IMG/VR virus record: IMGVR_UViG_3300037419_001523
Length of the DNA: 20,000 bases
Strand: one strand, 5' to 3'
Source: an uncultured virus (IMG/VR IMGVR_UViG_3300037419_001523)
Taxonomy: Duplodnaviria; Heunggongvirae; Uroviricota; Caudoviricetes
A model generated the notes under the pieces. It did not search any database and was not told where the DNA came from. It saw only the letters and a program-made list of their open reading frames with translations. Below, one piece after another: positions 2,276-17,137 of this stretch. A program made the position numbers and the translations under genes. The first letter of the stretch is position 1. Each line of letters starts with the position of its first letter.

Positions 2276-2289
2276 ATAAAAAGTGACTT

Positions 2290-2481
2290 TTAATTGTATA
2301 TCTCAGTCTCAAATATAACTTCATTTGGTAATAATCCTTCTTTTTGAACCCAGTAACCCATATAAGGATACTGTTTAGGGAAAACTCTATGCCAAGTGCC
2401 ACCTTTATGTCTTCTATAAGACTTTAATTTAGATAAGTAATATTCAATTGTAAAAGTTAAATGCTCATATAACCAATACAT
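2290..2481 (-). CDS. Hypothetical phage protein (63 aa)
   Basis: ORF track; RBS GGGAGG; the stop lies in a junction site. Confidence 0.75.
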   Translation of the reverse strand: MYWLYEHLTFTIEYYLSKLKSYRRHKGGTWHRVFPKQYPYMGYWVQKEGLLPNEVIFETEIYN

Positions 2482-2484
2482 TTA

Positions 2485-2670
2485 TTAATCCTCCCACAAT
2501 TTTGTGTCATATTCTCCTCGTTCAAGATTCCCAATCCAAATTCTTAACTCTCTAATTTGCCCTAACTCTGTATGTAATCCTCCAGCAAAATCACGATCAT
2601 TTCTATTTTCAAGTGATTTTAAGCGTTCCTTCATATTATGCAGTAGAGACTTTTTATCAACTATATTCAT
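2485..2670 (-). CDS. Hypothetical phage protein (61 aa)
   Basis: ORF track; RBS GGGGAG; tightly packed operon. Confidence 0.75.
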   Translation of the reverse strand: MNIVDKKSLLHNMKERLKSLENRNDRDFAGGLHTELGQIRELRIWIGNLERGEYDTKLWED

Positions 2671-2675
2671 ATGTA

Positions 2676-2921
2676 TTACTCCCCTTGTTTTGAATATTTT
2701 CCTTTACCTAAATAAGCGTTCCAATATTCATTAATTACTGGAAAAATTACAGTTGAATAAAAAGCGTACTGTTTCAAAAATTCACCTTTATCTGTTTGAA
2801 CTAATCCTCCTGACCACTTCTCAACTTCTTTTTGATACTTTTCATATGCTTCATTAAATTCTTCATCAGTATTTTTCTTTTTATATTCTTTTAGTTTATC
2901 AATAATTTGATCAATCTCCAT
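2676..2921 (-). CDS. Hypothetical phage protein (81 aa)
   Basis: ORF track; RBS AAGGGAGG. Confidence 0.8.
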   Translation of the reverse strand: MEIDQIIDKLKEYKKKNTDEEFNEAYEKYQKEVEKWSGGLVQTDKGEFLKQYAFYSTVIFPVINEYWNAYLGKGKYSKQGE

Positions 2922-2948
2922 TATTATTCCTCCCTTAAAATCTACTTA

Positions 2949-3632
2949 TTATTGGATTTTTATTATTATGTATGACTTATAATCCTCATTTAACCACTTG
3001 TAAATTTTCTGTAATCTTTCATAAGAGTAAACAGTACACCACAATTCATTATTTGGTTTATACCAATCCTTAAGAACCTTGTTATGCTTACTTGTATTAC
3101 AACTCTTACAAGCTGGAACGCAATTGGATAAATCATTGGAACCATTATGGTCTACATGATCTCTATGGAAGTCTCCTAATTGTGTTTTTCCTCTGAAAAC
3201 TATGTAGTGTTCTTCAATTTTTAAATCACAATACGCACATCTATAATTGAAGTAATTCTTACAGTTTTCCCATTCTTTAGTGGTAATTTTATGTTCTTTG
3301 TTCATCTGTCTATCTTTAAACTGCTCATTTAATTTATCTTTGTTTTTTCTTTGCCATTCTTTTTGTTTACCGTTATCTCTTCTTTTCTTAGAATTTCTTC
3401 TATCCATTTCAATTCGCCATTCAGCATTTTTAAGGTAATAATGTATTCTTTCTTTATATTTCTCTGGATTGTCTTTCATCCATTGACTGTATCGTTGCTT
3501 TGTGCAAACTTTACATTCAGGATTATAATAAATCCATTCTCCTCGTTTCTTGCTTTGTTTCTTTTGTGAATAGAACTCAGTTAGTGGTTTTATTTCGTTG
3601 CAAACAGAACACGATTTACTTTCGATTTCCAT
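2949..3632 (-). CDS. HNH endonuclease with N-terminal zinc finger
   Basis: N-terminal CSVC...CKVC; C-terminal CAYC...HRDHVDHNGSNDLSNCVPACKSCNTSK. Confidence 0.9.
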   Translation of the reverse strand: MEIESKSCSVCNEIKPLTEFYSQKKQSKKRGEWIYYNPECKVCTKQRYSQWMKDNPEKYKERIHYYLKNAEWRIEMDRRNSKKRRDNGKQKEWQRKNKDKLNEQFKDRQMNKEHKITTKEWENCKNYFNYRCAYCDLKIEEHYIVFRGKTQLGDFHRDHVDHNGSNDLSNCVPACKSCNTSKHNKVLKDWYKPNNELWCTVYSYERLQKIYKWLNEDYKSYIIIKIQ

Positions 3633-3665
3633 ATACCAACCTCCTTTTAAGTTAAAAGAATCATT

Positions 3666-4001
3666 TTACCAGAACAAAAATCTTTTTCTGTTTATTATTT
3701 TCTCTGACTCAATTTTAGATTGTTCTGTTAATTTATCTTCGACTATTTTCACAAAATCAGTATAATAATTAACACTTCCATCTAAATTTCTTGCCCTGTT
3801 ATTAATATTTAGAGGCATGTTAGAAACATCTAGTTTTACTTTTTCGCCAAGTCCCAATAATGAATTAGGTATTTCTGCTTTTTCAATAAGAAAATAATCA
3901 ACAAACTCATTAGTTTTATATAATTTAGGTTTACTGAAACAAGAAACTCCATACTTAACTCTTTTTTTAATCCCATAAAAATACGCATTATGTTTTTCCA
4001 T
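3666..4001 (-). CDS. Hypothetical phage protein (111 aa)
   Basis: ORF track; junction sites on both sides. Confidence 0.75.
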   Translation of the reverse strand: MEKHNAYFYGIKKRVKYGVSCFSKPKLYKTNEFVDYFLIEKAEIPNSLLGLGEKVKLDVSNMPLNINNRARNLDGSVNYYTDFVKIVEDKLTEQSKIESEKIINRKRFLFW

Positions 4002-4033
4002 TTTCTTAACTCCACTCCTTTGAAACTGATATT

Positions 4034-4315
4034 TTATTTCTTTGTAGCAACTTTATACCACTGATCAATCAAATCTCTTCTGTCATTCTCAGCATTCAAT
4101 AACTCACTTGCAAAATCAAACTTAGCCATTTTATATCCTTCTATATATTTATTTTTGTTTTGATTCTGCAATTCTGTGATTGTTCTTAGTAAAAACGGAA
4201 CTGAATCAGCGACTTTACAAGGTAAATCAATATCTAAAAATTCACCTTCATATGCTGCTGAATATTTGTTATATTGCTTTTGTATCTTTGTTAACTTTAC
4301 ATCTAAACCTTCCAT
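4034..4315 (-). CDS. Hypothetical phage protein (93 aa)
   Basis: ORF track; RBS GAGGAGG. Confidence 0.8.
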   Translation of the reverse strand: MEGLDVKLTKIQKQYNKYSAAYEGEFLDIDLPCKVADSVPFLLRTITELQNQNKNKYIEGYKMAKFDFASELLNAENDRRDLIDQWYKVATKK

Positions 4316-4318
4316 TAG

Positions 4319-4837
4319 TTAATCCTCCTCGTAATCTCTATTTTTCTTAATCCAATCATACAGACGAGCAATAAAACTAATCTCCCCAAAATTAGCTATG
4401 TAAGCTGCGTTGTTTAAATAGTCTTCACGCTTTATGAGTTCCTTCTGCTCTTCACAGATTTTTTCATATTCATCGAACATAAAATTTTCAATTTCTTTGA
4501 AAGTTCTATTCCTAATCGTAGGTAACTCGACCTTTTCTTTAGGTTTTATTCGTGATGGTTTAATTGTTGCTATTACTTCCTCTTGTAAAGGTTCTTTTAG
4601 AGTTATTGGAGTTGTTTTCATGTTCAGATACCCAAACTTAACCTCACCCTTTACTACTTCTAAAATGTCATTTATTAAGTGTTTAAGAATAAAATCATAA
4701 TGCTGCTTATTTAGGAAATTGATATTTAATTTTCCACGTTCATCTTCAATGAAAAACAATGAATAAAATTCACCGGAATAATTAATCTTTTCTGCAAATA
4801 TTTGAGTTAGATTTTGAAATATTTCTTCCTTGTCCAT
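4319..4837 (-). CDS. Hypothetical phage protein (~172 aa)
   Basis: ORF track 4319..4846; start moved to ATG 4837 by RBS AAAGGTGA spacing. Confidence 0.8.
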   Translation of the reverse strand: MDKEEIFQNLTQIFAEKINYSGEFYSLFFIEDERGKLNINFLNKQHYDFILKHLINDILEVVKGEVKFGYLNMKTTPITLKEPLQEEVIATIKPSRIKPKEKVELPTIRNRTFKEIENFMFDEYEKICEEQKELIKREDYLNNAAYIANFGEISFIARLYDWIKKNRDYEED

Positions 4838-4892
4838 ATTGATCACCTTTATGTATTATACATTGTTGTAAACAGGAAATAAAACTAACTTT

Positions 4893-5270
4893 TTATTTTA
4901 ATTCTAGTGATTCTTTTGCTACCCTTGAACAAGTCTTTCCAAGCATATCAATACCACCATACTCAGCAATTTCCTTCAATGATTTTTCATAACGTTCATT
5001 AGTTTCTATGTGCCACTCAAGACAACCGTTTAACTCCTTTATTACATTTTCCTTTTGTTCAATCTTCTTCTTTATTTCATAATTCTCTATCAATACTTTT
5101 TCCCGATGTTCAGTAATTTTATCAAGCAAATCTCCAAGTTGTTCGTTTTCTTGTTCTAAACGTTCAACTTTTTTATCTAAATCCATCAAATGAATACATA
5201 AGCAATCATATAAATATCTATCAGTGTGATATAAAATTTTAAGTGTTTCATTTAATTCTGATTCAGTCAT
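4893..5270 (-). CDS. Hypothetical coiled-coil phage protein (125 aa)
   Basis: ORF track; heptad-rich KKVERLEQENEQL. Confidence 0.8.
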   Translation of the reverse strand: MTESELNETLKILYHTDRYLYDCLCIHLMDLDKKVERLEQENEQLGDLLDKITEHREKVLIENYEIKKKIEQKENVIKELNGCLEWHIETNERYEKSLKEIAEYGGIDMLGKTCSRVAKESLELK

Positions 5271-5506
5271 TTTTTCTCCTCCATCATCAAAGAAAATTTA
5301 TCATCTTCACTAAATCCTCTTGGTTCATCAAATTCCTCGAATTCAATTTCTCTTAAATATGTTACATGCACTTTATTATCAGTTAAGGATTCTTCATACA
5401 CAATCCAACCATCTGATTCCATTTCTTCATTACCTTGTTTTCTCTCTTTACTTGAGTTGTACCAAGCCTTTATCATTTCTACATATCCTTGATAAGTAAT
5501 ATTCAT
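5267..5506 (-). CDS. Hypothetical phage protein (79 aa)
   Basis: ORF track; RBS GGAGG; ATGA overlap with the next gene. Confidence 0.8.
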   Translation of the reverse strand: MNITYQGYVEMIKAWYNSSKERKQGNEEMESDGWIVYEESLTDNKVHVTYLREIEFEEFDEPRGFSEDDKFSLMMEEKK

Positions 5507-5532
5507 TTAATTCCTCCATTAAAATTTAGTTT

Positions 5533-5796
5533 TTATTTCAAATCAAAGTATTCAATAAATTCATCAATTGTGACAACATAAGCTACCAATCCTGTAACAC
5601 CTTCATTCATCTTTCCTTCGTTCACCAATGGTTGCACAACAAATTCAAGATCGTTACTATTTAATCTTCTAACAAATTCTGTGACAACCCATGTATCGTT
5701 TAAACTAAACATAAAAGATACTGCGTTATCAGGTTTCTTATTGGCTTTTAACTTTGTTTGCCATAATTGAACTTCGTTTGCTTCGAATTTATTCAT
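5533..5796 (-). CDS. Hypothetical phage protein (87 aa)
   Basis: ORF track; RBS GAGGTGA; junction sites on both sides. Confidence 0.8.
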   Translation of the reverse strand: MNKFEANEVQLWQTKLKANKKPDNAVSFMFSLNDTWVVTEFVRRLNSNDLEFVVQPLVNEGKMNEGVTGLVAYVVTIDEFIEYFDLK

Positions 5797-5826
5797 ACTC
5801 TCACCTCATAAAAGTTAATTTTTATT

Positions 5827-6198
5827 TTATTTTAATAACTCTCGATTTTCGTATATATTTCCAATTACTTTCCCATTTACTGCTTCTTTCATATTAAGAT
5901 GATCTTCTTCATCCCCTTTAGGATCATGACAGTAAAAACCTGAATACTCATCATCCCATTTTATTATTAAAGGGTATTCTCCGTAACTATCACCTATAAT
6001 AATGTCTCCTTCATAAATTTCCTTACCGTTTTTATCTCTCAATCCTGTAAATAGCATCAAATCATATCTGTTATCACCAATTGTTAAAATAGATGGTGGA
6101 TTAACTGAAGCTGATACTGGAACTTCTGATAGTTGTTGATTATGATCAGCCCATCTATTTTCTTGTTTATCCCAAGTTCTATATTTAATTTCCCTCAT
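5827..6198 (-). CDS. yopX: YopX family protein
   Basis: Signature MREIKYRTWDK...LMLFTGLRDKNGKEIYEGDII...VIGNIYENRELL. Confidence 0.92.
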   Translation of the reverse strand: MREIKYRTWDKQENRWADHNQQLSEVPVSASVNPPSILTIGDNRYDLMLFTGLRDKNGKEIYEGDIIIGDSYGEYPLIIKWDDEYSGFYCHDPKGDEEDHLNMKEAVNGKVIGNIYENRELLK

Positions 6199-6320: not shown

Positions 6321-6350
6321 TAACTATAATCCTCCTTTAAAACCTTCGTT

Positions 6351-6704
6351 TTATGTTAAATATACTTGATAAATTATTCCTTCTTTATCTGGATATAATT
6401 CATAATATAGTTTTAAGTCTTGTTCAGAATACTTTCTAACAAGGTAATAATAATTTCTATGAATAGGCATTCTATGATGGTTTATAATATCTTCATACAC
6501 AGATTCTTCGAATCCAATTGGACTGTTTCTTTTTATGATCTTATATTGATTCAATATCATTTGAGCATCTTCAAATGTAACATCTGAATTGTGTTCATAT
6601 TGTAATTCCTCAAACAATATTTTACTTGTATATTCAGTAAGTATTGCTTCACCAATTTCAAATCTCAAATTTTCACCTCCAGTACACTGAATGAATTTCT
6701 TCAT
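6351..6704 (-). CDS. Hypothetical phage protein (117 aa)
   Basis: ORF track; the stop lies in a junction site; weak RBS. Confidence 0.7.
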   Translation of the reverse strand: MKKFIQCTGGENLRFEIGEAILTEYTSKILFEELQYEHNSDVTFEDAQMILNQYKIIKRNSPIGFEESVYEDIINHHRMPIHRNYYYLVRKYSEQDLKLYYELYPDKEGIIYQVYLT

Positions 6705-6715
6705 TTATTATGTAT

Positions 6716-6862
6716 TTATTTATTCTTGGTTGTTATTTCCTTCGTTACTCCAGCAAAATGAAGCCCTTTCTTTTTTAACTCTTCAAATAATTCATTGAGT
6801 ATTTCTAGGTGATCATGTTCATCATATGTAGTTAATTCTCCACGAATTTCAAACACTTTCAC
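6716..6862 (-). CDS. Small hypothetical protein (48 aa)
   Basis: RBS AGGAGGTGA + GTG; MKVFEIRGELTTYDEHDHLEILNELFEELKKKGLHFAGVTKEITTKNK. Confidence 0.7.
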   Translation of the reverse strand: MKVFEIRGELTTYDEHDHLEILNELFEELKKKGLHFAGVTKEITTKNK

Positions 6863-6874
6863 TGTTTTCACCTC

Positions 6875-6997
6875 CTATCCAATCTTAACTTTCTTAACTG
6901 TATCTGAATGAAACCAGTTAAATCTCTGGTTGCTTGAATAAAATTCTTTGTACATCTTAATATATTGTAATTCTTTGAGCGTTATCACCTTCTCCAT
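6875..6997 (-). CDS. Small hypothetical protein (40 aa)
   Basis: RBS GGAGGAG; MEKVITLKELQYIKMYKEFYSSNQRFNWFHSDTVKKVKIG. Confidence 0.6.
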   Translation of the reverse strand: MEKVITLKELQYIKMYKEFYSSNQRFNWFHSDTVKKVKIG

Positions 6998-7040
6998 TGC
7001 TTTTCTCCTCCATTGTAATTAATTATTTATTATTAACTCC

Positions 7041-7069
7041 ATTCTATCATAAATTTTCCCAAGTGTATA
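7041..7069 (-). promoter_or_regulatory. sigmaA-type promoter driving the 6997-2290 gene array
   Basis: TATACA-17 bp-TAGAAT with extended TGn; AAAAATAATT element upstream. Confidence 0.55.
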
Positions 7070-7097
7070 TATTTATATTCAATTATTTTTGAATATA

Positions 7098-7140
7098 AAG
7101 CAGAAAATATCTAGTTGTTTAAACTAAATACTTTCTGCTT
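7098..7140 (-). terminator. 19-bp hairpin/terminator after the aimX-position ORF
   Basis: AAGCAGAAAGTATTTAGTT/AACTAGATATTTTCTGCTT; both mismatches are G-U pairs only on the - strand. Confidence 0.7.
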
Positions 7141-7147
7141 CATTAAA

Positions 7148-7345
7148 TTATACATTATAAATTTCCTCTGCCGTAAGATTAATAAATGGATCATTCTTTA
7201 CTGATGTATTTGAACCACAACCACAGTTATTTTCCCAACACAGTACACACTGGTTATCATTATTGACTTCTTTCATACTGTAAGGAATAAAAGCCATCTG
7301 CATTTGTTTTAAAATCATTGAGTAGTTTCTTTCCATTCTCAACAT
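7148..7345 (-). CDS. Putative arbitrium effector in the aimX position (65 aa, Cys cluster)
   Basis: RBS AAAAGGGAGAG. First ORF after aimP and its hairpin, bounded by its own terminator. Carries CxxC-x4-CxC. Confidence 0.65.
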   Translation of the reverse strand: MLRMERNYSMILKQMQMAFIPYSMKEVNNDNQCVLCWENNCGCGSNTSVKNDPFINLTAEEIYNV

Positions 7346-7405
7346 CTCTCCCTTTTCGTTCCGATTTTGTGATTTTGAAAAATTGGAATTTTCTTTTTAA
7401 ACTAG

Positions 7406-7439
7406 AAATGGACATTACCCCGAAGGATAACGTCCATTT
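7406..7439 (-). terminator. 15-bp C(UUCG)G hairpin between aimP and the aimX-position ORF (probable AimR-controlled terminator)
   Basis: AAATGGACGTTATCC-TTCG-GGGTAATGTCCATTT with two G-U pairs valid only on the - strand; weak U-tract. Confidence 0.7.
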
Positions 7440-7497
7440 GCTGATGTAATTTAAATAATATGTAGTTATTTTTGATTAAAGCTTACAACGGGGAGCA

Positions 7498-7653
7498 TTA
7501 TGCTCCACCGCCACCCGGATCAACGTAAGAAGGAGATACAGTTGTAATTGTAGCAACAACTTGTGTTTCCTTGCTTACATTTGGTTTTGCAACCAACGCT
7601 CCAATCAATAACAAACCTGATAACGCAATAATAGAAATTATTTTTTTAATCAT
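7498..7653 (-). CDS. aimP: Arbitrium signal peptide precursor AimP (51 aa)
   Basis: Not in the ORF track. Perfect RBS AAAGGAGGTGA; MIKKIISIIALSGLLLIGALVAKPNVSKETQVVATITTVSPSYVDPGGGGA (Sec signal peptide plus C-terminal DPG/GA peptide); immediately after aimR. Confidence 0.9.
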   Translation of the reverse strand: MIKKIISIIALSGLLLIGALVAKPNVSKETQVVATITTVSPSYVDPGGGGA

Positions 7654-7685
7654 TCAGTACTCACCTCCTTTCAAAGACACCATAG

Positions 7686-8819
7686 TTAAGCACATAATAC
7701 ATTTATAATATAATCATTTTCACCCATTTTTTTAAGTTCCATAATTGGTAATAGTTTGTAAAACTTTTCTCCTGCTTTGATGAAATATTCAACAGATTTA
7801 TAAAAATAGGATTTTTCTTGAAACAATAAACCCCGATAAAACATATTAAATGCCTTTCCATGAACGCTTAATTCATCAAAATTAATTTTGTTCAATGTTT
7901 TCTCAGCCATTCCTTTATTGCCTGATTTAATATAGTAAAAAAGTTCGTTACTCGCTGTTCCATCACTATTAAAATTTTCTAACCTATCCCATAATAAAGA
8001 AGTGAAGTTAATACTTTGTTTAATTTCATACTCAGACTTGATTGTTTTACATTCCAACGCTTTGTTAAAATAAAACATAGCTTTATCGTAATTTTTAGTC
8101 ATATACGAGTTTCCGACTTGTAAATAAACCATTGTTTTTGTAGGATCAGGAGCATTTTCAATCTGGAATAAACTTTCAATGAGTTTTCCAATCTCATCAG
8201 TGTGTAAATTAACGTCTACTTTCATTCGAAAAACTCGCCCTGTATAAGAATTTCTAATAAATTTATTCTTTATGGATTCGATTTCTTTTTCAATGTCTTC
8301 AATTCCGTAATTAATCATATTAATGTTTCTCATCATATAGTAGGAATAAATAATCCCAATTTTTGCAAATGTTCTAATTTCGATTTTACAATGAATAAAA
8401 GCATTGAGTGACTTAATTCCCTCTAATGGACTTATTTCTTTTGTTTGTACTTGTCTATGGATATCATAAACCGCTGCAAATTCTTCTGACTCCTTTTTAT
8501 CACTTTCTTTTAATCTATCAGTTATTATTTTCACCAAATCATATTTATAGTATAATGTTGCATATTCCAGTAGCATTTTAAGAGTCATTTTTTTAGGGTC
8601 TAGTTCATTGGCATACTCAACAAGTAACTCGTAACTAGTTTCAGGGAATAATTTCTCAATTACTTTTACAAATCCATCTAGTTTTTCAATATCTCGATTC
8701 TCTGTCAATGTTCGTTTGAAATTGCCACCATTTGAATATCCAGCTATTTCACCGAGTTCATTTTGAAATCCTCTAGGATTCTTTTCTAATTGATCAAGAA
8801 TTTTTTTGTAAACCTTCAT
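7686..8819 (-). CDS. aimR: Arbitrium receptor AimR (N-terminal HTH plus TPR domain, RRNPP family)
   Basis: Resembles SPbeta AimR (…YELLVEYANELD…LEYA…; C-terminal FYKSVEYFIKAGEKFYKLLPIMELKKMGEN). ORF track starts at GTG 8828; ATG 8819 fits RBS AAAAGGGTGA better. Confidence 0.92.
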   Translation of the reverse strand: MKVYKKILDQLEKNPRGFQNELGEIAGYSNGGNFKRTLTENRDIEKLDGFVKVIEKLFPETSYELLVEYANELDPKKMTLKMLLEYATLYYKYDLVKIITDRLKESDKKESEEFAAVYDIHRQVQTKEISPLEGIKSLNAFIHCKIEIRTFAKIGIIYSYYMMRNINMINYGIEDIEKEIESIKNKFIRNSYTGRVFRMKVDVNLHTDEIGKLIESLFQIENAPDPTKTMVYLQVGNSYMTKNYDKAMFYFNKALECKTIKSEYEIKQSINFTSLLWDRLENFNSDGTASNELFYYIKSGNKGMAEKTLNKINFDELSVHGKAFNMFYRGLLFQEKSYFYKSVEYFIKAGEKFYKLLPIMELKKMGENDYIINVLCA

Positions 8820-8852
8820 TAATTTCACCCTTTTTAATTACTTGTTACTGTA

Positions 8853-8881
8853 ATTATACCAAGGTTATCCAATTTTGTAAA
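8853..8881 (-). promoter_or_regulatory. sigmaA promoter of aimR
   Basis: TTTACA-17 bp-TATAAT with extended TGn. Confidence 0.75.
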
Positions 8882-8920
8882 TACTTATTTAATTATTTTT
8901 GTTTGAATTGTTGTATTTTC

Positions 8921-9148
8921 TTAGAAGTGTGATCTTGATACTTTGCAGGAATATGAGATGAGGTTATTATCTTGAATGAGTATTTTCACTGAATCGCCAA
9001 ATTCTTGTTTAAGTTGCTTCCATACACTTAATTTTTCTTTTTTATTTTTAAAGGAGATATATCCAGAAACAACATTAATATTATTTTCATCCATTAAATC
9101 ATATATTCCCTCTTTTGTTCTATAAACTGTACGGTCAGAAACAAACAT
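8921..9148 (-). CDS. Hypothetical phage protein (75 aa)
   Basis: ORF track; RBS AAGGAGAGG. Confidence 0.75.
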   Translation of the reverse strand: MFVSDRTVYRTKEGIYDLMDENNINVVSGYISFKNKKEKLSVWKQLKQEFGDSVKILIQDNNLISYSCKVSRSHF

Positions 9149-9212
9149 GCTAATCCTCTCCTTTTAATTATATTTGTTTATGTAGCCCTGCTACAGATAA
9201 TTTGCAGCAGGA

Positions 9213-9440
9213 TTAACTGTAAAATGCGCCCATAACCCTATTAATTTTCTTTAATGAATATTCAGGGTTATCTTTTAAAATTGCATATAAAAATTTATGT
9301 TTTCTAAGTTCCTCAAGTATTTTTAATTCTTCTGGTGTAGGTATTTCTGTTTTATAATCCGTATTCGATTCATTTTTCATCTCATCAATTATTCTAGGAA
9401 TAGATTTTTTCATAAGCTGTGCAATGTCTATGCTGATCAA
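9213..9440 (-). CDS. Hypothetical phage protein (75 aa)
   Basis: ORF track; RBS AAAGGAG, TTG start. Confidence 0.75.
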   Translation of the reverse strand: MISIDIAQLMKKSIPRIIDEMKNESNTDYKTEIPTPEELKILEELRKHKFLYAILKDNPEYSLKKINRVMGAFYS

Positions 9441-9459
9441 TTTTTTTACTCCTTTAACT

Positions 9460-9624
9460 TCAATTTTTTATTGCTAAAAAATATTCTATGTTTTCTCTTT
9501 TTAAAAAACCGACAACAATTCCTTTATCTTTTTCAAAAGAAATAAAATCATCTTTATAATAAACTATATCAACATTTTCTAATACAAATTTATCTTCATT
9601 AACAATTTTTACTATATAATTCAT
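9460..9624 (-). CDS. Hypothetical phage protein (~54 aa)
   Basis: ORF track 9460..9708; start moved to ATG 9624 (RBS AAAGGGAG) because the upstream part overlaps another ORF and a junction site. Confidence 0.7.
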   Translation of the reverse strand: MNYIVKIVNEDKFVLENVDIVYYKDDFISFEKDKGIVVGFLKRENIEYFLAIKN

Positions 9625-9655
9625 AATTGCATCTCCCTTTAAAACTAAGATTTTG

Positions 9656-9808
9656 TTAGGAATATTTCTCAATAAACTCCTGATAAATTCGTTCTCTAAT
9701 TTCTTCATATTCCTTAAATGTAAGTGTCTCAGCCATAACCATTTTAATATATGGCATCAAAGTCGCTTGAATTTCTGACCAACGATCAAAAGGTATTCCC
9801 TTTCCCAT
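9656..9808 (-). CDS. Small hypothetical protein (50 aa)
   Basis: RBS GGAGGGGG; MGKGIPFDRWSEIQATLMPYIKMVMAETLTFKEYEEIRERIYQEFIEKYS. Confidence 0.7.
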   Translation of the reverse strand: MGKGIPFDRWSEIQATLMPYIKMVMAETLTFKEYEEIRERIYQEFIEKYS

Positions 9809-9836
9809 AATTTCCCCCTCCAAATGAAACAATCCT

Positions 9837-10010
9837 TTATTTGCTTTTATCTAATGTTTCAATAAATTTCTTCACACCTGCATTGTCCGTTAACCATTTA
9901 CTATCCTTTTGTAGACCCTTGAGAATATTGGCTATTTCAGATGTATCTCCAGAAAATAAAGCATCATCAATCTTTTTCTTAGTTTCTACATATTTTTTAC
10001 CTTCTGACAC
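9837..10010 (-). CDS. Small hypothetical protein (57 aa)
   Basis: RBS AGGGGAGG + GTG; MSEGKKYVETKKKIDDALFSGDTSEIANILKGLQKDSKWLTDNAGVKKFIETLDKSK. Confidence 0.75.
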   Translation of the reverse strand: MSEGKKYVETKKKIDDALFSGDTSEIANILKGLQKDSKWLTDNAGVKKFIETLDKSK

Positions 10011-10040
10011 CTTAAAACCTCCCCTATTAAAAAATTTCTT

Positions 10041-10262
10041 TCATTCTTCCTCTTTCGGAATAAAGGTTACTTCCCCTTCTTTCCAAGTGAACCTGTCACT
10101 TCTTCCCTCAAATAATGCCATCAATTGTTGGTACAATTTTGTATTAACAGGGACATTTGCAAAGATATTTAATTCCTTATTGGCTAGAGAAATTCCACCT
10201 TTTCCATTAAGGATGATCCTCATTTCAGCTTGAATACTTTTACCTTGCTGCTTATCAGTCAT
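10041..10262 (-). CDS. Hypothetical phage protein (73 aa)
   Basis: ORF track; RBS AGGGGG; junction sites on both sides. Confidence 0.8.
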   Translation of the reverse strand: MTDKQQGKSIQAEMRIILNGKGGISLANKELNIFANVPVNTKLYQQLMALFEGRSDRFTWKEGEVTFIPKEEE

Positions 10263-10302
10263 TTAACTTCCCCCTATAATTCAAATGAAATGATTATTTT
10301 AC

Positions 10303-10566
10303 CTACTTCCAGTATTCATTATTGAAATGCTTTTTACCATACTCTTTTAATGCTTGAAGTTTCGCAATCATTTCATCTATATCACATATATGAATATATT
10401 GATGATTCTCACCAGTTGTATCTTCACTAGGCTTATAGCCATTCATACCCATTCTAAGATCAATACAACCGTCCCACTTCAATGTAACTTCGTCATACCC
10501 ATACTCTTCATCTTCTAATACAACATTTCTGCTTCCTTCATATTCTTTTACTTTTTTAAAAATCAT
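10303..10566 (-). CDS. Hypothetical phage protein (87 aa)
   Basis: ORF track; RBS AAGGGG; junction sites on both sides. Confidence 0.8.
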   Translation of the reverse strand: MIFKKVKEYEGSRNVVLEDEEYGYDEVTLKWDGCIDLRMGMNGYKPSEDTTGENHQYIHICDIDEMIAKLQALKEYGKKHFNNEYWK

Positions 10567-10591
10567 ATAAAATCCCCTTAAAATACTAGTT

Positions 10592-10783
10592 TTATTTTTC
10601 CTTCTTTTTCAATTGATCAATGCTATAAGTTCTAACTTCTCCACTAAGTTTTTCTAATTCCTCTTTAGTTAATTTTTCAGATTCAAAAGTTACATCTGGA
10701 GAACGATATTGATAAATTTGATGTCCTCTCCAACGTTCTCCATTTGTTCCGGCAGTCTTTCTTCCAGCTTTTCTAACTGACAT
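10592..10783 (-). CDS. Hypothetical phage protein (63 aa)
   Basis: ORF track; RBS AAAGGGG. Confidence 0.75.
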   Translation of the reverse strand: MSVRKAGRKTAGTNGERWRGHQIYQYRSPDVTFESEKLTKEELEKLSGEVRTYSIDQLKKKEK

Positions 10784-11057: not shown

Positions 11058-11082
11058 GAAAAATTTACTAATTTATGTAAAG

Positions 11083-11104: not shown

Positions 11105-11116
11105 CCTGAATTACAG

Positions 11117-11859: not shown

Positions 11860-11898
11860 TGTGATCATCTCCTTTTGAAACTTTTATTTTATTTTGTA

Positions 11899-12387
11899 TT
11901 AGCACCATTCAAGTTTATATGTTCCGTTTTCCAATTTTTCTTTCTTTTCTAGGAGATATTTCAATTCTGATTCAAGACTTCTGATTTTATCGTCAATTTC
12001 TTCAATGATTAAACTTTTACTTTTGGATGCGTCAATACTAACAAAATATTTCGGATATGACCAACCACCACTATCTATAGCCACCCTATAAGGATTTTCG
12101 TATTGATTGACTTCATCTTTCCTGACACTTTTAACTTTATCCCTCTCAAAAACTAATTCAAATTCGTCTATATTTTCATCCGTTAATGGAATATAAACGC
12201 TATCACCAGAACTCCAATAAGTATCTCTCATGAAATAATTACCTTCATGGTTCATATATACATCAAAAGTCCAGTTACAACAGTGATACAAATTATTTTC
12301 AAACAATTTCCCTCTGTATTTGACATTAGGTTTACAAGTGTATAAACCATTCATTTTTAACTTCTCAATATTATAATCAGATAGCAA
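11899..12387 (-). CDS. Hypothetical phage protein (162 aa) with C-terminal coiled coil
   Basis: ORF track; RBS AAGGAGG, TTG start. Confidence 0.8.
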   Translation of the reverse strand: MLSDYNIEKLKMNGLYTCKPNVKYRGKLFENNLYHCCNWTFDVYMNHEGNYFMRDTYWSSGDSVYIPLTDENIDEFELVFERDKVKSVRKDEVNQYENPYRVAIDSGGWSYPKYFVSIDASKSKSLIIEEIDDKIRSLESELKYLLEKKEKLENGTYKLEWC

Positions 12388-12416
12388 TTTTCTTTCCTCC
12401 TTTTGAAATGTTCTTT

Positions 12417-12719
12417 TTATAGTGTAATTGGTTTTGGTTTAATCTGCTGCCAAGCCTCTAATAATGCTTCATTAATCAATTCTACCGGACATACTTCTAA
12501 CATTTTATTTAATTCATATTTTCTTCTATCTTCCATGCTTAGTTTTCTATAAGAATAATCATTTGTCATACTTGATCCACATGTATAAGTAAATTTACGC
12601 TTTCCTTTTGGTTTAACTCCTATATCCTCTAATATAAATTCTCTTTCTGAAATTCTTATCCTTAATTCTAATTTTGTTCCATCTTCCCTGACTTTCTCTA
12701 TCCAAAATTGATTATTCAT
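12417..12719 (-). CDS. Hypothetical phage protein (100 aa)
   Basis: ORF track; RBS AAGGGG. Confidence 0.8.
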   Translation of the reverse strand: MNNQFWIEKVREDGTKLELRIRISEREFILEDIGVKPKGKRKFTYTCGSSMTNDYSYRKLSMEDRRKYELNKMLEVCPVELINEALLEAWQQIKPKPITL

Positions 12720-12745
12720 TTCTAGTTCCCCTTAAAAGATATTTT

Positions 12746-12856
12746 TCATTCTAATTCTACTTTACATGAACCTCCGCATACTTCACACAAAAATGTTCCT
12801 GTTCCGTCATCATTTGGATCAATACCTTGACCTCCACAGTTTTCACATTCTTTCAT
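12746..12856 (-). CDS. Mini DnaJ-type zinc-finger protein (36 aa)
   Basis: RBS GAGGTGA; MKECENCGGQGIDPNDDGTGTFLCEVCGGSCKVELE. Confidence 0.75.
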   Translation of the reverse strand: MKECENCGGQGIDPNDDGTGTFLCEVCGGSCKVELE

Positions 12857-13001: not shown

Positions 13002-13015
13002 ATTATTTAACCCCC

Positions 13016-13177: not shown

Positions 13178-13277
13178 TTTAATAACCTCCCATGTTTTAT
13201 TAATTCCAAAAACCTACCGACAACACTGTTATGTAGTGTTAGTATATTTTGTTATAGGCAGGGCTTTAGGAATCAAA

Positions 13278-13490: not shown

Positions 13491-13533
13491 TTGTAACACT
13501 CCTTTGTTTTGTTATAGTTTATTATATGTTAAG

Positions 13534-13692
13534 TTATTTCTTTTTAGAACTAATTTCTTTAACCATCATAGGGACATTGAAAACTTTTTGTAGTTCAGCC
13601 ATTTTCACTCCAGCTAATTCCTTAGTTTCAAACTTTGTATTTACTAAGGTTGTTAAATGTCCGTTTGGTTGAAATGTAAATATTTGATACAT
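13534..13692 (-). CDS. Small hypothetical protein (52 aa)
   Basis: RBS AAGGGGG; MYQIFTFQPNGHLTTLVNTKFETKELAGVKMAELQKVFNVPMMVKEISSKKK. Confidence 0.7.
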   Translation of the reverse strand: MYQIFTFQPNGHLTTLVNTKFETKELAGVKMAELQKVFNVPMMVKEISSKKK

Positions 13693-13723
13693 GTTATTTC
13701 CCCCTTGAAATTGTCATATTAAT

Positions 13724-13864
13724 TCAATTCTTTAAATTTCTTTCAAACAATTCATCACTTATGATCTTTGCTAAATCATGATTGTCTACTGTAAATGCTT
13801 CGAATAATACTACATTCAATTCCTCTTTACTAAGAAACTCAGCCATCAACTTGAAATGTTCCAT
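13724..13864 (-). CDS. Small hypothetical protein (46 aa)
   Basis: RBS AAGGAGGT; MEHFKLMAEFLSKEELNVVLFEAFTVDNHDLAKIISDELFERNLKN. Confidence 0.75.
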   Translation of the reverse strand: MEHFKLMAEFLSKEELNVVLFEAFTVDNHDLAKIISDELFERNLKN

Positions 13865-13896
13865 TCTCGTTTACCTCCTTGTTATCTTATGAGTTA

Positions 13897-13925
13897 ATTA
13901 TAATCGAAAATAAACTAATATACAA
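13897..13925 (-). promoter_or_regulatory. sigmaA promoter
   Basis: TTGTAT-17 bp-TATAAT. Confidence 0.65.
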
Positions 13926-13956
13926 TACTTAAATTGAAAAAAATTCTAATTATTTT

Positions 13957-14148
13957 TTATCCCTCCCTAATCTTTCTAATTAATTCCATAGCTTCATGTA
14001 CCAATGGATCACCGTTTCTTTCGTAAAAATCAATTAATACTTTAATAACATCCTCTTCAGTCTTAACCCTTAAATCTAGTCTAAGTTGCTGAATTTTAAA
14101 TTTAGTATCCTCGTGTACGGCAATTCCAGTTCTTTTGTTATTTGTCAT
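13957..14148 (-). CDS. Putative ribbon-helix-helix DNA-binding protein (63 aa)
   Basis: RTGIAVHEDTKFKIQQL...KTEEDVIKVLIDFY fits the beta-alpha-alpha pattern; RBS AAGGAGG. Confidence 0.65.
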   Translation of the reverse strand: MTNNKRTGIAVHEDTKFKIQQLRLDLRVKTEEDVIKVLIDFYERNGDPLVHEAMELIRKIREG

Positions 14149-14187
14149 TGTATTTTCCTCCTTAAAATTAAAAAATAATAATTTTTA

Positions 14188-14217
14188 TTGTAATTTTATA
14201 ATTATCAAACATATAAT
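14188..14217 (+). promoter_or_regulatory. sigmaA promoter firing antisense into the small hydrophobic ORF
   Basis: TTGTAA-18 bp-TATAAT on the + strand. Confidence 0.55.
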
Positions 14218-14260
14218 ATTAGCAAGGAAAGGAGTTTTACCTCCCTTCCCTGTCCTTCAG

Positions 14261-14350
14261 TTATTTTTTCATTGAGAGGATGGCTGAAACAATCTCAACA
14301 ATGATATGAATAATCTGAAGGACTGCTAATATCACATGTAGCAGTTCCAA
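14261..14350 (-). CDS. Candidate type I toxin (29-aa hydrophobic peptide)
   Basis: RBS GAAAGGAGGT in a small hairpin; TTG start; MELLHVILAVLQIIHIIVEIVSAILSMKK (single TM plus terminal lysines). Confidence 0.65.
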   Translation of the reverse strand: MELLHVILAVLQIIHIIVEIVSAILSMKK

Positions 14351-14436
14351 AAAGGTTAAACCTCCTTTCATCGGATTACTACATTATATGTTGACGTGAT
14401 AACAAAATTGATAAAATATCAACAGAATAAAAAATA

Positions 14437-14462
14437 AAAATCCAGTCTTTTAGGCTGGATTT
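14437..14462. terminator. Bidirectional intrinsic terminator
   Basis: AAATCCAGTC-TTTTA-GGCTGGATTT flanked by A- and T-rich tracts. Confidence 0.7.
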
Positions 14463-14484
14463 CTTTAATGAAAGTTGCATTTTA

Positions 14485-14697
14485 TTAAACTTTTTTCAAA
14501 ACTTCCTCAGCAATACTTTGTAAATACACTTGAAAAGAGATTTCCCCACCATGCATTTCTTTAAATTCAAACCATTTTTCTATAGATGGATTAACAATTT
14601 CTCTTAATGCGTTAAGTAAAAGTTGATTTTCTTCCTCTAAATCACATATAGAGCAACTACGTCTTAAAAATCCATGCTCACAAACATTTTCTAACAT
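14485..14697 (-). CDS. Hypothetical protein (70 aa) with N-terminal CxH...CxxC motif
   Basis: ORF track; CEHGFLRRSCSIC; junction sites on both sides. Confidence 0.8.
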   Translation of the reverse strand: MLENVCEHGFLRRSCSICDLEEENQLLLNALREIVNPSIEKWFEFKEMHGGEISFQVYLQSIAEEVLKKV

Positions 14698-14724
14698 TCT
14701 TTCACCCCTTTTAAAATTCGGTTT

Positions 14725-14949
14725 TTATTGGTTATTATCCAAAAAATTATCTAATTCTTCTCGATCCATTTTCCACAAAGGTTTTTTACCAGTCAAATTA
14801 ACAAATTGTCTTGTATCTAAATTCTCATACCAAAATTCAACATTTGCAGAAAAATCACCCTCATAATTTAAAACATTAATATAAACATCATCGTCCACTT
14901 CTTCTAGTAATTCGATTAATTTCTTTTTAGTTAATAAACCCTCAAACAT
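14725..14949 (-). CDS. Hypothetical phage protein (74 aa)
   Basis: ORF track; RBS AAGGGGG; junction sites on both sides. Confidence 0.8.
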   Translation of the reverse strand: MFEGLLTKKKLIELLEEVDDDVYINVLNYEGDFSANVEFWYENLDTRQFVNLTGKKPLWKMDREELDNFLDNNQ

Positions 14950-15060
14950 TATTCTTCCCCCTTAAATCGTTGTTTTAACCAGTGATATTTCAGGCTTGCT
15001 GTTATATAGAACATGGAAGAAATGAAAGTCTAGTTCATCCCTCCCATGTTGTTATAGTGA

Positions 15061-16659
15061 TTATGAAGTAAGCCTTAGTAATTCCTCTGCTCTCAATATG
15101 TAGAATGATTGATTATTATATACTTTGTTGTATGATTCTTTACCTTCAAATTGATCAATAACTTCTTTTTCCTCGTTTGACATGTCTGTATATTTTTGTT
15201 TTCCATATGAAGGAGGAAGCCACATTTTAGATTTCGCTGCAGTCAAATTGAATTTATGCAATAAATCCATACTTTTGAATTCCAGATGACATGTTCCTTT
15301 TTTATAGAAGGTTAGAAAAAAGTACCGAGTTTCTATTTTCTTTGTTTTCCCTGTTTCTTCCGCATGTTTTAATACTTCTTTTAAGTCAATATCGTTTGTT
15401 GTACCATTATCTAAGTAACTGAATGTACGTTCAATATCTCTTAATTTATCATAGCATCTGTAGTGACTAGGCTCATATCTGCCCCAAGTATACTGCATGT
15501 CATAATATCCATTTAACGGAATTACTACACGCTTGTTAATTTTATAAGCACTATTACTCTTCCAACCGTTCCAAAGATGCACGTTTTTACTTGATTCATC
15601 ATAATAATGGTGTTTATGACTTAATTCCTCAAACAAATTTAAAATTGTATCCTCTACGCCCTGCACCATTTCTTTACTTAGTTGTATTCTTAACGTATAG
15701 ATATTATAGAAAGAAAAGTCATAATCCTTTAATTCTTCCACCATTTCGTTATATTTCTGTTTTAGATTTGACGTAAAAAGTCCCATAAATTGATCATTAT
15801 TAAATAACGCTTTCCAATACTTACTTCTAATTTGCTTAATATATGCGTTCTCTATTGTGCTGCTATCATCCTTGTAGTCCAATTCCAATTTGAGTACAGG
15901 ACTATCACTGTCAAAGCTTCTTAGCATTAATGGGCGGAGACTGTTATACTCATTAATTAACTTGAGTCCAGCTTTCACTTCATATTCATACTGTGATACA
16001 ATCCCTTTAATAAAATCAGATTCTATTAAATGAGTAGATTCATATTCTTTTACATTATGAATCTCTTCTTTTTTCAGTTCATTAATAATTGTACTGTCAT
16101 AGGGTTGTTTCTCAATGTGAATGGTCACAAGAGCCACAGTCACACCTGTTGAACGCTCACTGTTTACAAAAGCATTATCAATAAATTCCACTTCCGCATT
16201 ATACTTTTCCAATTGTCTAATTAATTCTTTTCTTGTATTACTGTATGGATTACGTAATGTATCTGCGTTAATTAATGCAACTATAGAGCCACCCCTTAGT
16301 TGAAGTCCAATTGAATGTAATAAACATTTATCCCCAATGCTAAACGGAAAGTTTGCAATAATACAGTCGTACTTTTTATATGAGTTGTACGTAAGGAAAT
16401 TGTCATGGGTAACTCGATAACCTTTTGATTTTAATATTGCCTGTAAATTAGGATCAATCTCCACACAATCCACATCATATTTCTTTGTATGTCTATATCT
16501 TTGAGTTAATTCAAATTGTTTTAAAATTCCCTCGACTAAATCCCCTTTTCCAGCAGATGGTTCTAAGCAACTTTTAACCTTCTCCCATTTAATTTTACTA
16601 AACATCTTTCTTTGTAAATGCAAAGGAGTTGGATAAAAATCAGGATTTTCTTTAAACAT
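15061..16659 (-). CDS. Class I SAM-dependent (N6-adenine-type) methyltransferase fused to a DUF4942-like domain
   Basis: FYPTP, LEPSAGKG, motif IV ANFPF; C-terminal NGWKSN...YFFLTFYKKGTCHLEF typical of DUF4942 proteins. Confidence 0.85.
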   Translation of the reverse strand: MFKENPDFYPTPLHLQRKMFSKIKWEKVKSCLEPSAGKGDLVEGILKQFELTQRYRHTKKYDVDCVEIDPNLQAILKSKGYRVTHDNFLTYNSYKKYDCIIANFPFSIGDKCLLHSIGLQLRGGSIVALINADTLRNPYSNTRKELIRQLEKYNAEVEFIDNAFVNSERSTGVTVALVTIHIEKQPYDSTIINELKKEEIHNVKEYESTHLIESDFIKGIVSQYEYEVKAGLKLINEYNSLRPLMLRSFDSDSPVLKLELDYKDDSSTIENAYIKQIRSKYWKALFNNDQFMGLFTSNLKQKYNEMVEELKDYDFSFYNIYTLRIQLSKEMVQGVEDTILNLFEELSHKHHYYDESSKNVHLWNGWKSNSAYKINKRVVIPLNGYYDMQYTWGRYEPSHYRCYDKLRDIERTFSYLDNGTTNDIDLKEVLKHAEETGKTKKIETRYFFLTFYKKGTCHLEFKSMDLLHKFNLTAAKSKMWLPPSYGKQKYTDMSNEEKEVIDQFEGKESYNKVYNNQSFYILRAEELLRLTS

Positions 16660-16691
16660 TTTAAATCCCCCTTAATTAACTTGTTACCTAT

Positions 16692-16720
16692 ATTTTACAC
16701 TTTATTTTATGTTATAGCAA
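16692..16720 (-). promoter_or_regulatory. sigmaA promoter of the methyltransferase operon
   Basis: TTGCTA-17 bp-TAAAAT. Confidence 0.65.
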
Positions 16721-16769
16721 GTTATTTATCTTTAAATTTCTAATACAATGTAAATTTTATAAGGTAAAG

Positions 16770-16796
16770 AAAAAAGCCAGTCTAAATTAGACTGGT
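16770..16796 (-). terminator. Intrinsic terminator
   Basis: CCAGTCTAA/TTAGACTGG inverted repeat plus - strand T-tract. Confidence 0.8.
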
Positions 16797-16798
16797 GT

Positions 16799-16945
16799 CT
16801 ATTTAATCCGTTTCGCAATTAAGTTGCCTATACCTACTCCAATTAGTGTAGCAATAAGAGAAATAATGTCATAGCCTCCACTATATAAACTTACCGCAAA
16901 CCAACCAACAATACCACCTATAAGTGAAAATAACAATGATTTCAT
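16799..16945 (-). CDS. Small two-TM membrane protein (48 aa)
   Basis: RBS GAGGAGGG; MKSLLFSLIGGIVGWFAVSLYSGGYDIISLIATLIGVGIGNLIAKRIK. Confidence 0.75.
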   Translation of the reverse strand: MKSLLFSLIGGIVGWFAVSLYSGGYDIISLIATLIGVGIGNLIAKRIK

Positions 16946-17137
16946 TTACTTTCCCTCCTCTTTAATAAATATATATTAAATATAATAATAAATATTCCTT
17001 CAATAAAATTTATAAGTATTAATTATTTTTGTTTTAATTTGAAATTGTGATTTTATAAGAAAAATTAGGCTCTCACGCTACATATAAGCCCCATACAATC
17101 GTGTTAGGATCAATCTAATACAATTACATATATAAAG

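Follow-up and report, generated by a model that had tools for sequence, protein, structure and literature searches.

Introduction

Phage genomes are mosaics, and ever since the modular theory of their evolution was put forward there has been debate over how intact genes are exchanged so cleanly. Heterospecific lox and FRT sites, engineered for recombinase-mediated cassette exchange, have identical arms and differing centres. Cluster A mycobacteriophages have stoperators, to which a lysogeny protein binds; these sites are 13 bp long, lack symmetry and follow the direction of transcription. The dif and pdif sites consist of inverted arms and a variable 6-bp centre, with the inner arm bases palindromic and highly conserved and the outer bases looser (PMC6449649), and 'dif modules' are described from Acinetobacter plasmids (PMC6449649; PMC13141974). 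T4-type phages carry promoter-early stem-loops (PeSLs; PMC2839356; PMC4122927), and SPbeta carries SPBRE, the operator of MrpR/SroF, in about ten copies at promoters (PMC10516654). Here we describe a repeated dyad, TRAAA-N6-TTTYA, which lies at the borders of small genes in a 20,000-nt stretch of DNA from an uncultured virus of the Caudoviricetes (IMG/VR IMGVR_UViG_3300037419_001523). This whole stretch is referred to below as the window.

A sequence-only reading of the window had interpreted the dyads as integron-like arrays of gene cassettes, with about 22 sites. Follow-up of the motif in the window, in SPbeta-like relatives and in other genomes leads us to a different reading, towards which we lean on balance: the dyad would be a dif-like site that docks a candidate phage protein, and would also serve as a fixed joint for the exchange of gene units. 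The architecture of the site is supported directly, and the support for the exchange role comes only from relatives.

Results

A repeated dyad between small genes

The window contains 16 exact copies of TRAAA-N6-TTTYA, at exactly the positions listed in the sequence-only reading, compared with 1.74 expected (standard deviation 1.22, largest 5). None of 200 dinucleotide-preserving shuffles of the window reached 16 copies, and the earlier estimate of one to two chance copies per 20 kb agrees with the expectation from shuffles. When the gap between the arms was varied from 0 to 20, 16 copies were found at gap six and 0–6 at every other gap, while non-palindromic arrangements of the same arms gave 1–3 copies per strand. 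The six-base centres of the 16 exact copies are all different, as had been noticed.

The one-mismatch class was not enriched overall: 37 copies with at most one mismatch were found, compared with 26.8 expected, and 9 of the 200 shuffles reached 37. One-mismatch copies alone numbered 21, compared with about 25 expected. The earlier figure of about 22 sites is accordingly reduced, and a fair count for the window is 16 sure sites and about five likely ones.

In the usual order on the coding strand, the left arm contains a stop codon or closely follows one; then come the six free bases, the right arm, and a ribosome-binding site (RBS) 0–3 nt further on. Of the 16 exact copies, 11 begin their arm with the three bases of the stop codon, and so does the one-mismatch copy at 2936, in agreement with the 12 of 21 counted before. 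Four one-mismatch copies (2936, 9640, 13706 and 14962) have the same register and stand directly before an RBS, and are plausibly real. The degenerate copy at 9825 is plausible by its context, and the copy at 16744 is doubtful. As had been described, the dyads in the window border units of one to three tightly coupled small genes. No exact dyad is present in 6354–10027, which holds aimR, aimP and neighbouring small genes and where only the weak copies at 9640 and 9825 lie, and none is present at the yopP/yopQ junction at the left end of the window; both absences had been reported.

Enrichment of the motif was also found in SPbeta-like relatives, where the sequence-only reading had suggested looking for it. 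SPbeta (NC_001884) contains 36 copies at gap six, compared with 0–10 at other gaps, and phi3Ts contains 34, compared with 5 for the reversed control pattern. In 27 IMG/VR loci fetched with a methyltransferase anchor there are 154 copies in total, and gap six is strictly the commonest in 23 of these loci and tied in 4. Two of three genome loci were enriched; the third, a 21.6-kb piece, was not (3 copies, compared with a maximum of 4), and the whole 133-kb contig from which it comes contains 29. Two prophages found through their YopP homologue, in genomes G030 and G294, have 36 and 19 copies per 80 kb.

The corresponding counts in whole host genomes are close to those of the control pattern or are concentrated in phage DNA: 240 versus 165 in an Aquibacillus genome (4.2 Mb), 112 versus 101 in a Brevibacillus genome (7 Mb), and, in a 9.1-Mb assembly, 29 of 33 copies on a single 133-kb phage contig. 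Eighteen unrelated phage loci bearing YopX (246 kb) contain 3 copies. The dyad motif is thus a trait of SPbeta-like phages, and not of hosts or of unrelated phages. An artefact of base composition, or of a stop codon followed by an RBS, is ruled out by the spacing scan, the host chromosomes and the 18 unrelated phage loci.

The 133-kb contig just mentioned (G003 contig C23, locus L032) is a low-GC, SPbeta-like contig with 29 dyads and a YopP homologue, in an assembly titled Streptomyces. It is probably foreign to that assembly, through contamination or mis-binning.

Architecture of the site

Base preferences around 193 unique sites are mirror images of each other at positions 0/17, 6/11 and −5 to −3/20 to 22. 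An A precedes the left arm and a T or A follows the right arm, with T at position 6 and A at position 11. Dyads of the B. subtilis group have TYT at −5 to −3 and ARA at +20 to +22, and the pattern in G030 is similar. Each half-site thus measures about 11 bp and the complete site about 28 bp. Two inverted arms, in which conservation is strictest at the inner bases, enclose six free base pairs, and this is the layout of Xer/dif-type core sites, whose arms of about 11 bp stand around a centre of 6–8 bp. The core-site geometry of tyrosine recombinases, proposed in the sequence-only reading, was borne out by the conserved inner arms, the free centre and the weaker, mirror-image outer positions of the half-sites.

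Pairing between the arms was examined over the same 193 sites. Paired positions showed no excess of complementary pairs, with z between −2.7 and 1.3, except for 3.0 at one pair. In the window copies, the two variable positions, 2 and 15, are never altered jointly. Folding the arms into a hairpin costs +0.5 to +1.6 kcal/mol in each of the 16 exact copies, and 28-nt segments fold no better than shuffles. A hairpin of RNA or of single-stranded DNA is ruled out by the non-covarying arms and the unfavourable fold energies. The combination of mirror-image preferences with no covariation and no stable fold favours a paired protein on duplex DNA over a structure in RNA or in a single strand. The motif is most likely a double-stranded site, laid out like dif, for a paired protein that is as yet a candidate.

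These results bear on an alternative raised by the sequence-only reading, that the dyad acts at the RNA level: in a polycistronic mRNA it would be the place of processing, or would couple translation or signal for it where one gene stops and the RBS of the next follows. Most window copies do have a fixed register of stop, arm and RBS, and all window genes lie on one strand. Neither a stable fold nor pairing covariation was found; the mirror-image preferences apply to both strands; copies 2277 and 14469 precede terminator-like hairpins; copies in SPbeta also lie between divergent genes and after terminators; and the host chromosome has no comparable enrichment. We consider a signal of this kind highly improbable.

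Joints of gene units in related phages

The fetched loci were compared all against all; kinship inflates the counts of pairs in this comparison, and counts of clusters are safer. Among 1536 unique homology ends, 187 (12.2%) lie within 15 bp of a dyad, compared with 0.7% for random positions, and these ends cluster at both edges of the dyad. Of 51 unique indels, 15 have a dyad at one edge and at the empty site. The comparison of breakpoints in SPbeta-like relatives had been put forward as a check in the sequence-only reading.

Copies that share a centre occur between many different neighbours. For the centre TGCATA, the flanks of its 24 copies fall into 4 clusters upstream and 15 downstream; TCGTAC has 22 copies (5 upstream, 11 downstream), TCATTC 17 (8 and 8), ACACCA 15 (5 and 2) and CAACAA 10 (8 and 6). 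In relatives of the B. subtilis group (L004–L027), no joint varies more than that of TGCATA, which directly follows the gene for the DUF4942 methyltransferase. At the matching place after its methyltransferase gene, the window has the one-mismatch copy 14962, with a different centre.

There are 422 pairs of copies with the same centre in which neither distal flank is related, compared with about 7 expected by chance from base-composition arithmetic. In these pairs, identity stays at background up to position −1 and drops again from position 17, except at the outer positions of the half-site. The variant of the right arm tracks the downstream flank, with 96% identity at position 15 if that flank is shared and 65–77% if it is not. 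This tracking, and the homology ends at the edges of the site, would fit exchange across the centre by an Xer-type recombinase and crossovers in short homology alike. An unbiased scan covered all 54,409 16-mers that occur in three or more loci, and no more than 79 of them have at least three unrelated flanks on both sides; among the 60 of these that were listed, 45 coincide or overlap with the dyads, a group that takes in some 30 bases following the TGCATA dyad.

The order of the recurrent centres was not violated in any pairwise comparison of loci, and their spacing differs several-fold. When SPbeta is compared with phi3Ts, 9 homology ends fall at dyads, compared with about 0.7 expected by arithmetic, and in the accessory stretch at 83.6–95.2 kb this applies to 6 of 14 ends. 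At orthologous, diverged junctions the centre is conserved at 97.8%, compared with 91.6% in the flanks, in only 15 pairs, which are too few to count. In relatives of the B. subtilis group, the dyads are thus shown to be joints of gene-unit replacement, each with its own centre and in constant order.

The fold and covariation tests decide largely against a true integron-like system, in which attC-type folded sites would be used by an IntI-like integrase that captures circular cassettes at attI. The attC sites of integrons, imperfect repeats of much greater length, function as single strands in folded form. In favour of the idea are the location of the dyads where genes end, frequently with the stop codon inside the site, the adjacent tyrosine recombinase gene, and 5 of the 51 indels in relatives, which show copies at their two edges as well as at the empty site. 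The site itself is a duplex of 16–28 bp with no stable fold and no pairing covariation, the joints keep a fixed order in relatives and do not move with cassettes, and both Pfam and the best solved match mark the recombinase as Xer-like. The promoter scan of the window showed no arrangement like attI/Pc, no search aimed at attI/Pc having been made beyond that scan. The description 'integron-like' is largely refuted, and we regard such a system as close to untenable.

Candidate proteins

Two genes at the left end of the window encode candidates for the paired protein. The first (927..1964, minus strand) encodes a homologue of YopP (SroD), an Xer-like tyrosine recombinase with the Pfam domains Phage_integrase (PF00589) and SAM-like N domain (PF02899). 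The second (1..822, minus strand) is the N-terminal part, cut by the window edge, of a homologue of YopQ (SroE), which is ParB/DndB-like (Pfam DndB, phrog_5732) and 32% identical to SPbeta YopQ (E = 3e-33). The 927–1964 protein is 28% identical to SPbeta YopP over its full length (E = 6e-34), and this full-length likeness, together with the YopQ homologue as the next gene, places it in the YopP family. It has no likeness to YopR/MrpR or YomM, and the small open reading frame (ORF) upstream of it has no likeness to YopO.

The best match of the 927–1964 protein to a solved structure is archaeal XerA (E = 3e-4), and in the alignment the box I arginine, the H-x-x-R motif, the late histidine and the tyrosine all line up. 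The complete R-K-H-R-H-Y set of tyrosine recombinases is present as R170, K196, H253, R256, H279 and Y288. Among 33 family members from Bacillaceae prophages and metagenomes, R256 is conserved in at least 90% and the other five residues are invariant. A member of the YopP family lies beside a dyad-rich region in 5 of 5 genomes examined (G001, G002, G003, G030 and G294), a count that is confounded by common descent.

MrpR is described as having lost recombinase function, and the integration of SPbeta as the task of the serine recombinase SprA (PMC10516654). The conserved active site of YopP is thus left with no assigned substrate. YopP is reported to have an XerC-type domain and YopQ a ParB_N_Srx domain (PMC8612738).

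We propose that the protein docking at the dyads is the YopP or the YopQ homologue. In the mechanism that we prefer, the Xer-like YopP homologue would exchange strands across the six-base centre, the partners being copies of like centre on the genomes of two co-resident phages. Gene units would be swapped in register, and the unlike centres within one genome would prevent deletions. We put forward exchange that is catalysed by YopP and matched by centre as a tentative proposal.

A word for SPBRE (15 bp) was derived from seven of the ten SPbeta promoter regions named in PMC10516654. It gave 16 matches with at most three mismatches in the window, compared with 10.4 expected, which is not significant. 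Identity of the dyad with SPBRE is ruled out: the words differ, and 1 of the 16 boxes lies within 40 bp of a dyad, as happens in 37% of random placements.

The main rival to exchange is that the dyads are operators or roadblocks of the module that represses phage genes in lysogeny, bound by YopQ/SroE or by a non-cutting YopP/SroD. They would silence or insulate the long early operons of the prophage, as mycobacteriophage stoperators do, and exchange would be a by-product of the short sequence that the copies share. Dyad symmetry with no covariation would suit a dimeric regulator, about 30–36 copies per genome lie in short intergenic gaps, and ParB-type proteins bind 16-bp palindromes. SroD and SroE reportedly bind multiple sites on the phage genome, which may or may not be the dyads. 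The ParB_N_Srx domain of YopQ (PMC8612738) fits this reading, as does the place of both genes in yopMNOPQR, named the repressor operon of SPbeta phages, sroABCDEF (PMC10769878). Further, yopP and yopQ are reported to be conserved core genes transcribed in the lysogen (preprint 10.1101/2021.11.22.469490), SroE to be a second repressor needed for lysogeny (preprint 10.1101/2025.11.27.690993), and the sister recombinase-fold protein MrpR/SroF to be a pure repressor (PMC10516654). An operator would leave unexplained why the free 6-bp centre stays constant when both flanks are replaced, and why the whole catalytic set is retained in the YopP family. The dyads are also not part of the MrpR operator, SPBRE being a different word with a dyad near one box only, and the ten peaks of the MrpR pull-down described in PMC10516654 are all at SPBRE promoters. 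We judge the operator or roadblock reading to be rather unlikely.

Evidence against exchange at the dyads

Several results weigh against a dedicated exchange system at the dyads. Among tandem junctions, 57 of 81 with a dyad have a breakpoint, compared with 188 of 336 without one (the rows are not independent), so the excess of breakpoints at dyads over this gene-border control is modest. The dyad is a frequent joint and not the only one. In 19 of the 51 indels neither edge has a dyad, and just 5 of the 51 combine dyads at the two edges with one at the empty site; among these five, one joins exactly at the dyad, and in another the crossover is in the ribosome-binding region, outside the dyad. 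The shared island at TGCATA extends about 15–25 bases past the dyad, and a non-dyad A-rich repeat, ArTAAAAATAAAAT, supplies 14 of the 60 island words listed, with 1 of the 60 being of another kind. In the comparison of SPbeta with phi3Ts, a dyad is found within 10 bp of only 9 of the 72 homology ends. The strictly kept part of each arm is only 5 bp, which is short for the arm of a recombinase site. SPbeta's own YopP has a lysine at the second catalytic arginine, and SroD is said to be an auxiliary repressor, which would be equally in keeping with regulation.

Laboratory hybrids of phi3Ts and SPbeta (MT366946–MT366948, compared with MT366945 and NC_001884) have crossovers inside identical blocks of 1.4, 4.9 and 18.2 kb. 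They also have crossovers in short dyad-free intervals, at least one of them in a 39-bp interval 7 kb from any copy, which belongs with the points above. For site-specific exchange the hybrids are uninformative.

Separately, identical blocks of phi3Ts and SPbeta tend to begin or end on a dyad (Hyb2 104632, 106012 and 119045; Hyb1 31974).

A last point of the same kind concerns the window itself. Searches of the viral and genome collections with AimR, the YopP homologue and the HNH protein found no close relatives of the window, and because of this the joint role at the window's own copies is an extrapolation from phages of the B. subtilis group. The suggestion that the copies are sites of recombination or shuffling therefore stands in part. 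Gain, loss and replacement of genes in relatives do have joints at the dyads, and an intact Xer-like recombinase is encoded adjacent to them; motif-free junctions break too.

Many of these results would also be expected if the dyad were a passive linker, that is, a border word read by no dedicated protein, which survives as homology-dependent crossovers there, made by general or phage-encoded recombination, leave genes intact. The many breakpoints at motif-free junctions, the indel crossover in the ribosome-binding region, a TGCATA island longer than the dyad, similar islands at a non-dyad repeat, and the hybrid crossovers in long identical blocks all fit this, and SPbeta is annotated with a Sak4-like annealing protein, yorG. 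A passive word leaves unexplained the strict arms, the gap fixed at six, the mirror-image outer preferences, the lack of the motif in other phages and in host DNA, and the retention of the same arms across phages whose AimR proteins are only 22–28% identical. We consider a passive linker improbable, and retain as our preferred reading a dif-like docking site that would also be a joint for exchange.

The A-rich repeat is itself a second intergenic repeat of SPbeta-like phages of the B. subtilis group, with about 10 copies per 21-kb locus, usually after TTAG and often just before an RBS or a promoter-like stretch. SPbeta has 11–12 copies (for example NC_001884 113685, 132768 and 90639), and the repeat was also seen in loci L013 and L023. 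It is absent from the window, where 1 match with two mismatches was found, compared with 0.87 expected.

Copies and genes of the window

The individual copies are given here with distances counted along the coding strand, which is the minus strand. In eleven exact copies a stop codon lies in the arm. At 2277..2292 it is the stop of 2290–2481, and a hairpin and T-run follow, which were seen by eye and missed by the terminator scan. At 3653..3668 it is the stop of 3666–4001, with the RBS of the HNH gene 8 nt on. At 4880..4895, the stop of 4893–5270 is followed by a −10-like TGTATAAT (by eye) and then by the RBS of 4319–4846. The copies at 4021..4036 (stop of 4034–4315), 5520..5535 (5533–5796) and 6338..6353 (6351–6704) each have an RBS 2 nt on. 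At 10028..10043 the TGA stop of 10041–10262 is followed by an RBS about 3 nt on, and at 12733..12748 a TGA ends a 36-codon ORF (12746–12856), with an RBS 1 nt on. The remaining three are at 10579..10594 (stop of 10592–10783; RBS 1 nt on), 12404..12419 (12417–12719; 3 nt on) and 14712..14727 (14725–14949; 3 nt on).

The stop codon precedes the arm in four other exact copies: by 2 nt at 5809..5824 (YopX gene 5827–6198; RBS 1 nt on), by 1 nt at 10286..10301 (TAG of 10303–10566; RBS 12 nt on), by 7 nt at 11876..11891 (11899–12387; RBS 3 nt on), and directly at 14469..14484 (14485–14697), where a hairpin and T-run seen by eye follow. The copy at 17040..17055 lies in a longer intergenic stretch; no gene ends inside it, and a terminator-like hairpin (17159–17142) is upstream on the coding strand.

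The likely one-mismatch copies are at 2936..2951 (TAATA arm, containing the stop of the HNH gene 2949–3632; RBS of 2676–2921 1 nt on), 9640..9655 (CAAAA arm, directly after the stop of 9656–9832; RBS 2 nt on), 13706..13721 (TAATA arm, 2 nt after the stop of 13724–13864; RBS 1 nt on) and 14962..14977 (TTTAA arm, downstream of the methyltransferase gene; RBS immediately after). The degenerate copy at 9825..9840 has an ATAAA arm overlapped by the stop of 9837–10010 and an RBS 3 nt on. The doubtful copy at 16744..16759 follows a terminator-like hairpin (16795–16777) and has no stop or RBS register. A scan for promoters and terminators added nothing, and the 107 promoter-like matches in the window are no more than in shuffles (121).

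All convincing genes of the window lie on the minus strand, and its GC content is 25–32%. Its membership of the SPbeta-like phages follows from an AimR/AimP module, the yopP–yopQ pair, YopX and the dyad motif. The arbitrium receptor AimR is encoded at 7686..8828 on the minus strand (Pfam AimR, E = 2e-56) and is 22–28% identical to the AimR proteins of 24 SPbeta-like Bacillus phages; a 51-codon aimP candidate lies at 7498–7653. Family searches also identified the HNH endonuclease gene (2949–3632, minus strand; the same family as SPbeta yoqL), the YopX gene (5827–6198, minus strand) and the gene for the DUF4942 DNA methyltransferase (15061..16659, minus strand), which was the anchor used for fetching relatives. 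They assigned no family to most of the other 25 window proteins scanned. The HNH gene forms a one-gene unit between copies 2936 and 3653.

An 18-base direct repeat, TATGTAAAGAAAAAAGCC and its variants, is present in three copies in the window, at 11074, 16761 and 17129. Two of the three copies overlap terminator-like hairpins.

Nucleotide matches of the window to known phages are almost nil, covering 2% of its length at 75.8% identity to phage SPR. The stretch is present, in the form of contigs throughout, in 11 metagenome runs from soil or rhizosphere, with no RNA run among the holders listed. A metagenome scan for relatives returned a single 1,670-bp contig at 59% identity, the nearest loci have only the methyltransferase in common (63–68%), and a protein search with the YopP homologue found relatives at 72–74% identity. 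The window is a distant, low-GC SPbeta-like phage from soil.

Discussion

The dyad is a defined and countable feature of a model phage family, of which SPbeta and phi3T are genetically tractable in Bacillus subtilis, and this family keeps an orphan Xer-like recombinase with an intact active site. It is possible, with the odds against it, that SPbeta-like phages have a natural form of recombinase-mediated cassette exchange, in which YopP/SroD would cut and rejoin DNA within the 6-bp centre of some 30 dyads per genome; like centres alone would recombine, and the centre would be the address. If the recombinase and the dyads do belong together, they would make up a natural, addressed system of cassette exchange, through which co-resident phages and prophages could swap accessory units in register, with no deletions and no loss of gene order. 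It might also be a tool for the ordered assembly of DNA at multiple sites. If the dyads are instead operators of the second repressor, they would explain the silence of long early operons in a 130-kb prophage.

No published description of the motif was found in the literature searched, a scope outside which the paper characterising SroD and SroE lies. Term look-ups in PMC10516654, PMC8270828 and preprint 10.1101/2021.11.22.469490 returned no mention of it, and the only literature match to the motif as written, in PMC5397151, concerns an unrelated archaeal regulator.

Comparison with known systems

Like integron attC sites, the dyads are inverted repeats at the 3′ ends of small genes, often over the stop codon, with a tyrosine recombinase gene at the end of the array. 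The size, the single-strand folding and the cassette mobility of attC are not found in them. Like stoperators, they number some 25–35 short sites per temperate genome and lie in short intergenic gaps near stop codons; unlike stoperators, they are symmetric and have a free centre. SPBRE resembles them in being a repeated element of SPbeta-like phages, and is read by a protein of the recombinase fold. The dyad is a different word, and SPBRE is not a dyad with a free centre.

PeSLs share with the dyads that conserved short elements stand between non-essential small phage genes in variable regions, where insertions, deletions and replacements distinguish related phages. They differ in that PeSLs combine a strong promoter of the sigma-70 type with a terminator stem-loop and recombine by homology between like copies, whereas the phage dyad is 16–28 bp, has no promoter consensus or stem-loop, and has centres that all differ within one genome. 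In this last respect the dyads are closer to heterospecific lox and FRT sites, having the same arms and unlike centres. If exchange at the dyads depends on the centre, as is putative here, only copies with like centres would recombine, in register and with no deletions. A natural phage array of about 30 heterospecific sites was not described in the literature searched.

Like the dif modules, the dyads are present in many copies per replicon and flank small accessory modules in varied contexts, and an Xer-type recombinase is the presumed agent. Unlike dif, the phage dyad has two like arms, so that XerC/XerD asymmetry is absent, and strict conservation covers just 5 bp of each. As candidate enzyme we consider a phage-encoded protein of the YopP family, and not the host XerCD. 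Unlike dif modules, too, the phage dyads lie directly between a stop codon and the next RBS, and in relatives they stand in a fixed order, each with its own centre.

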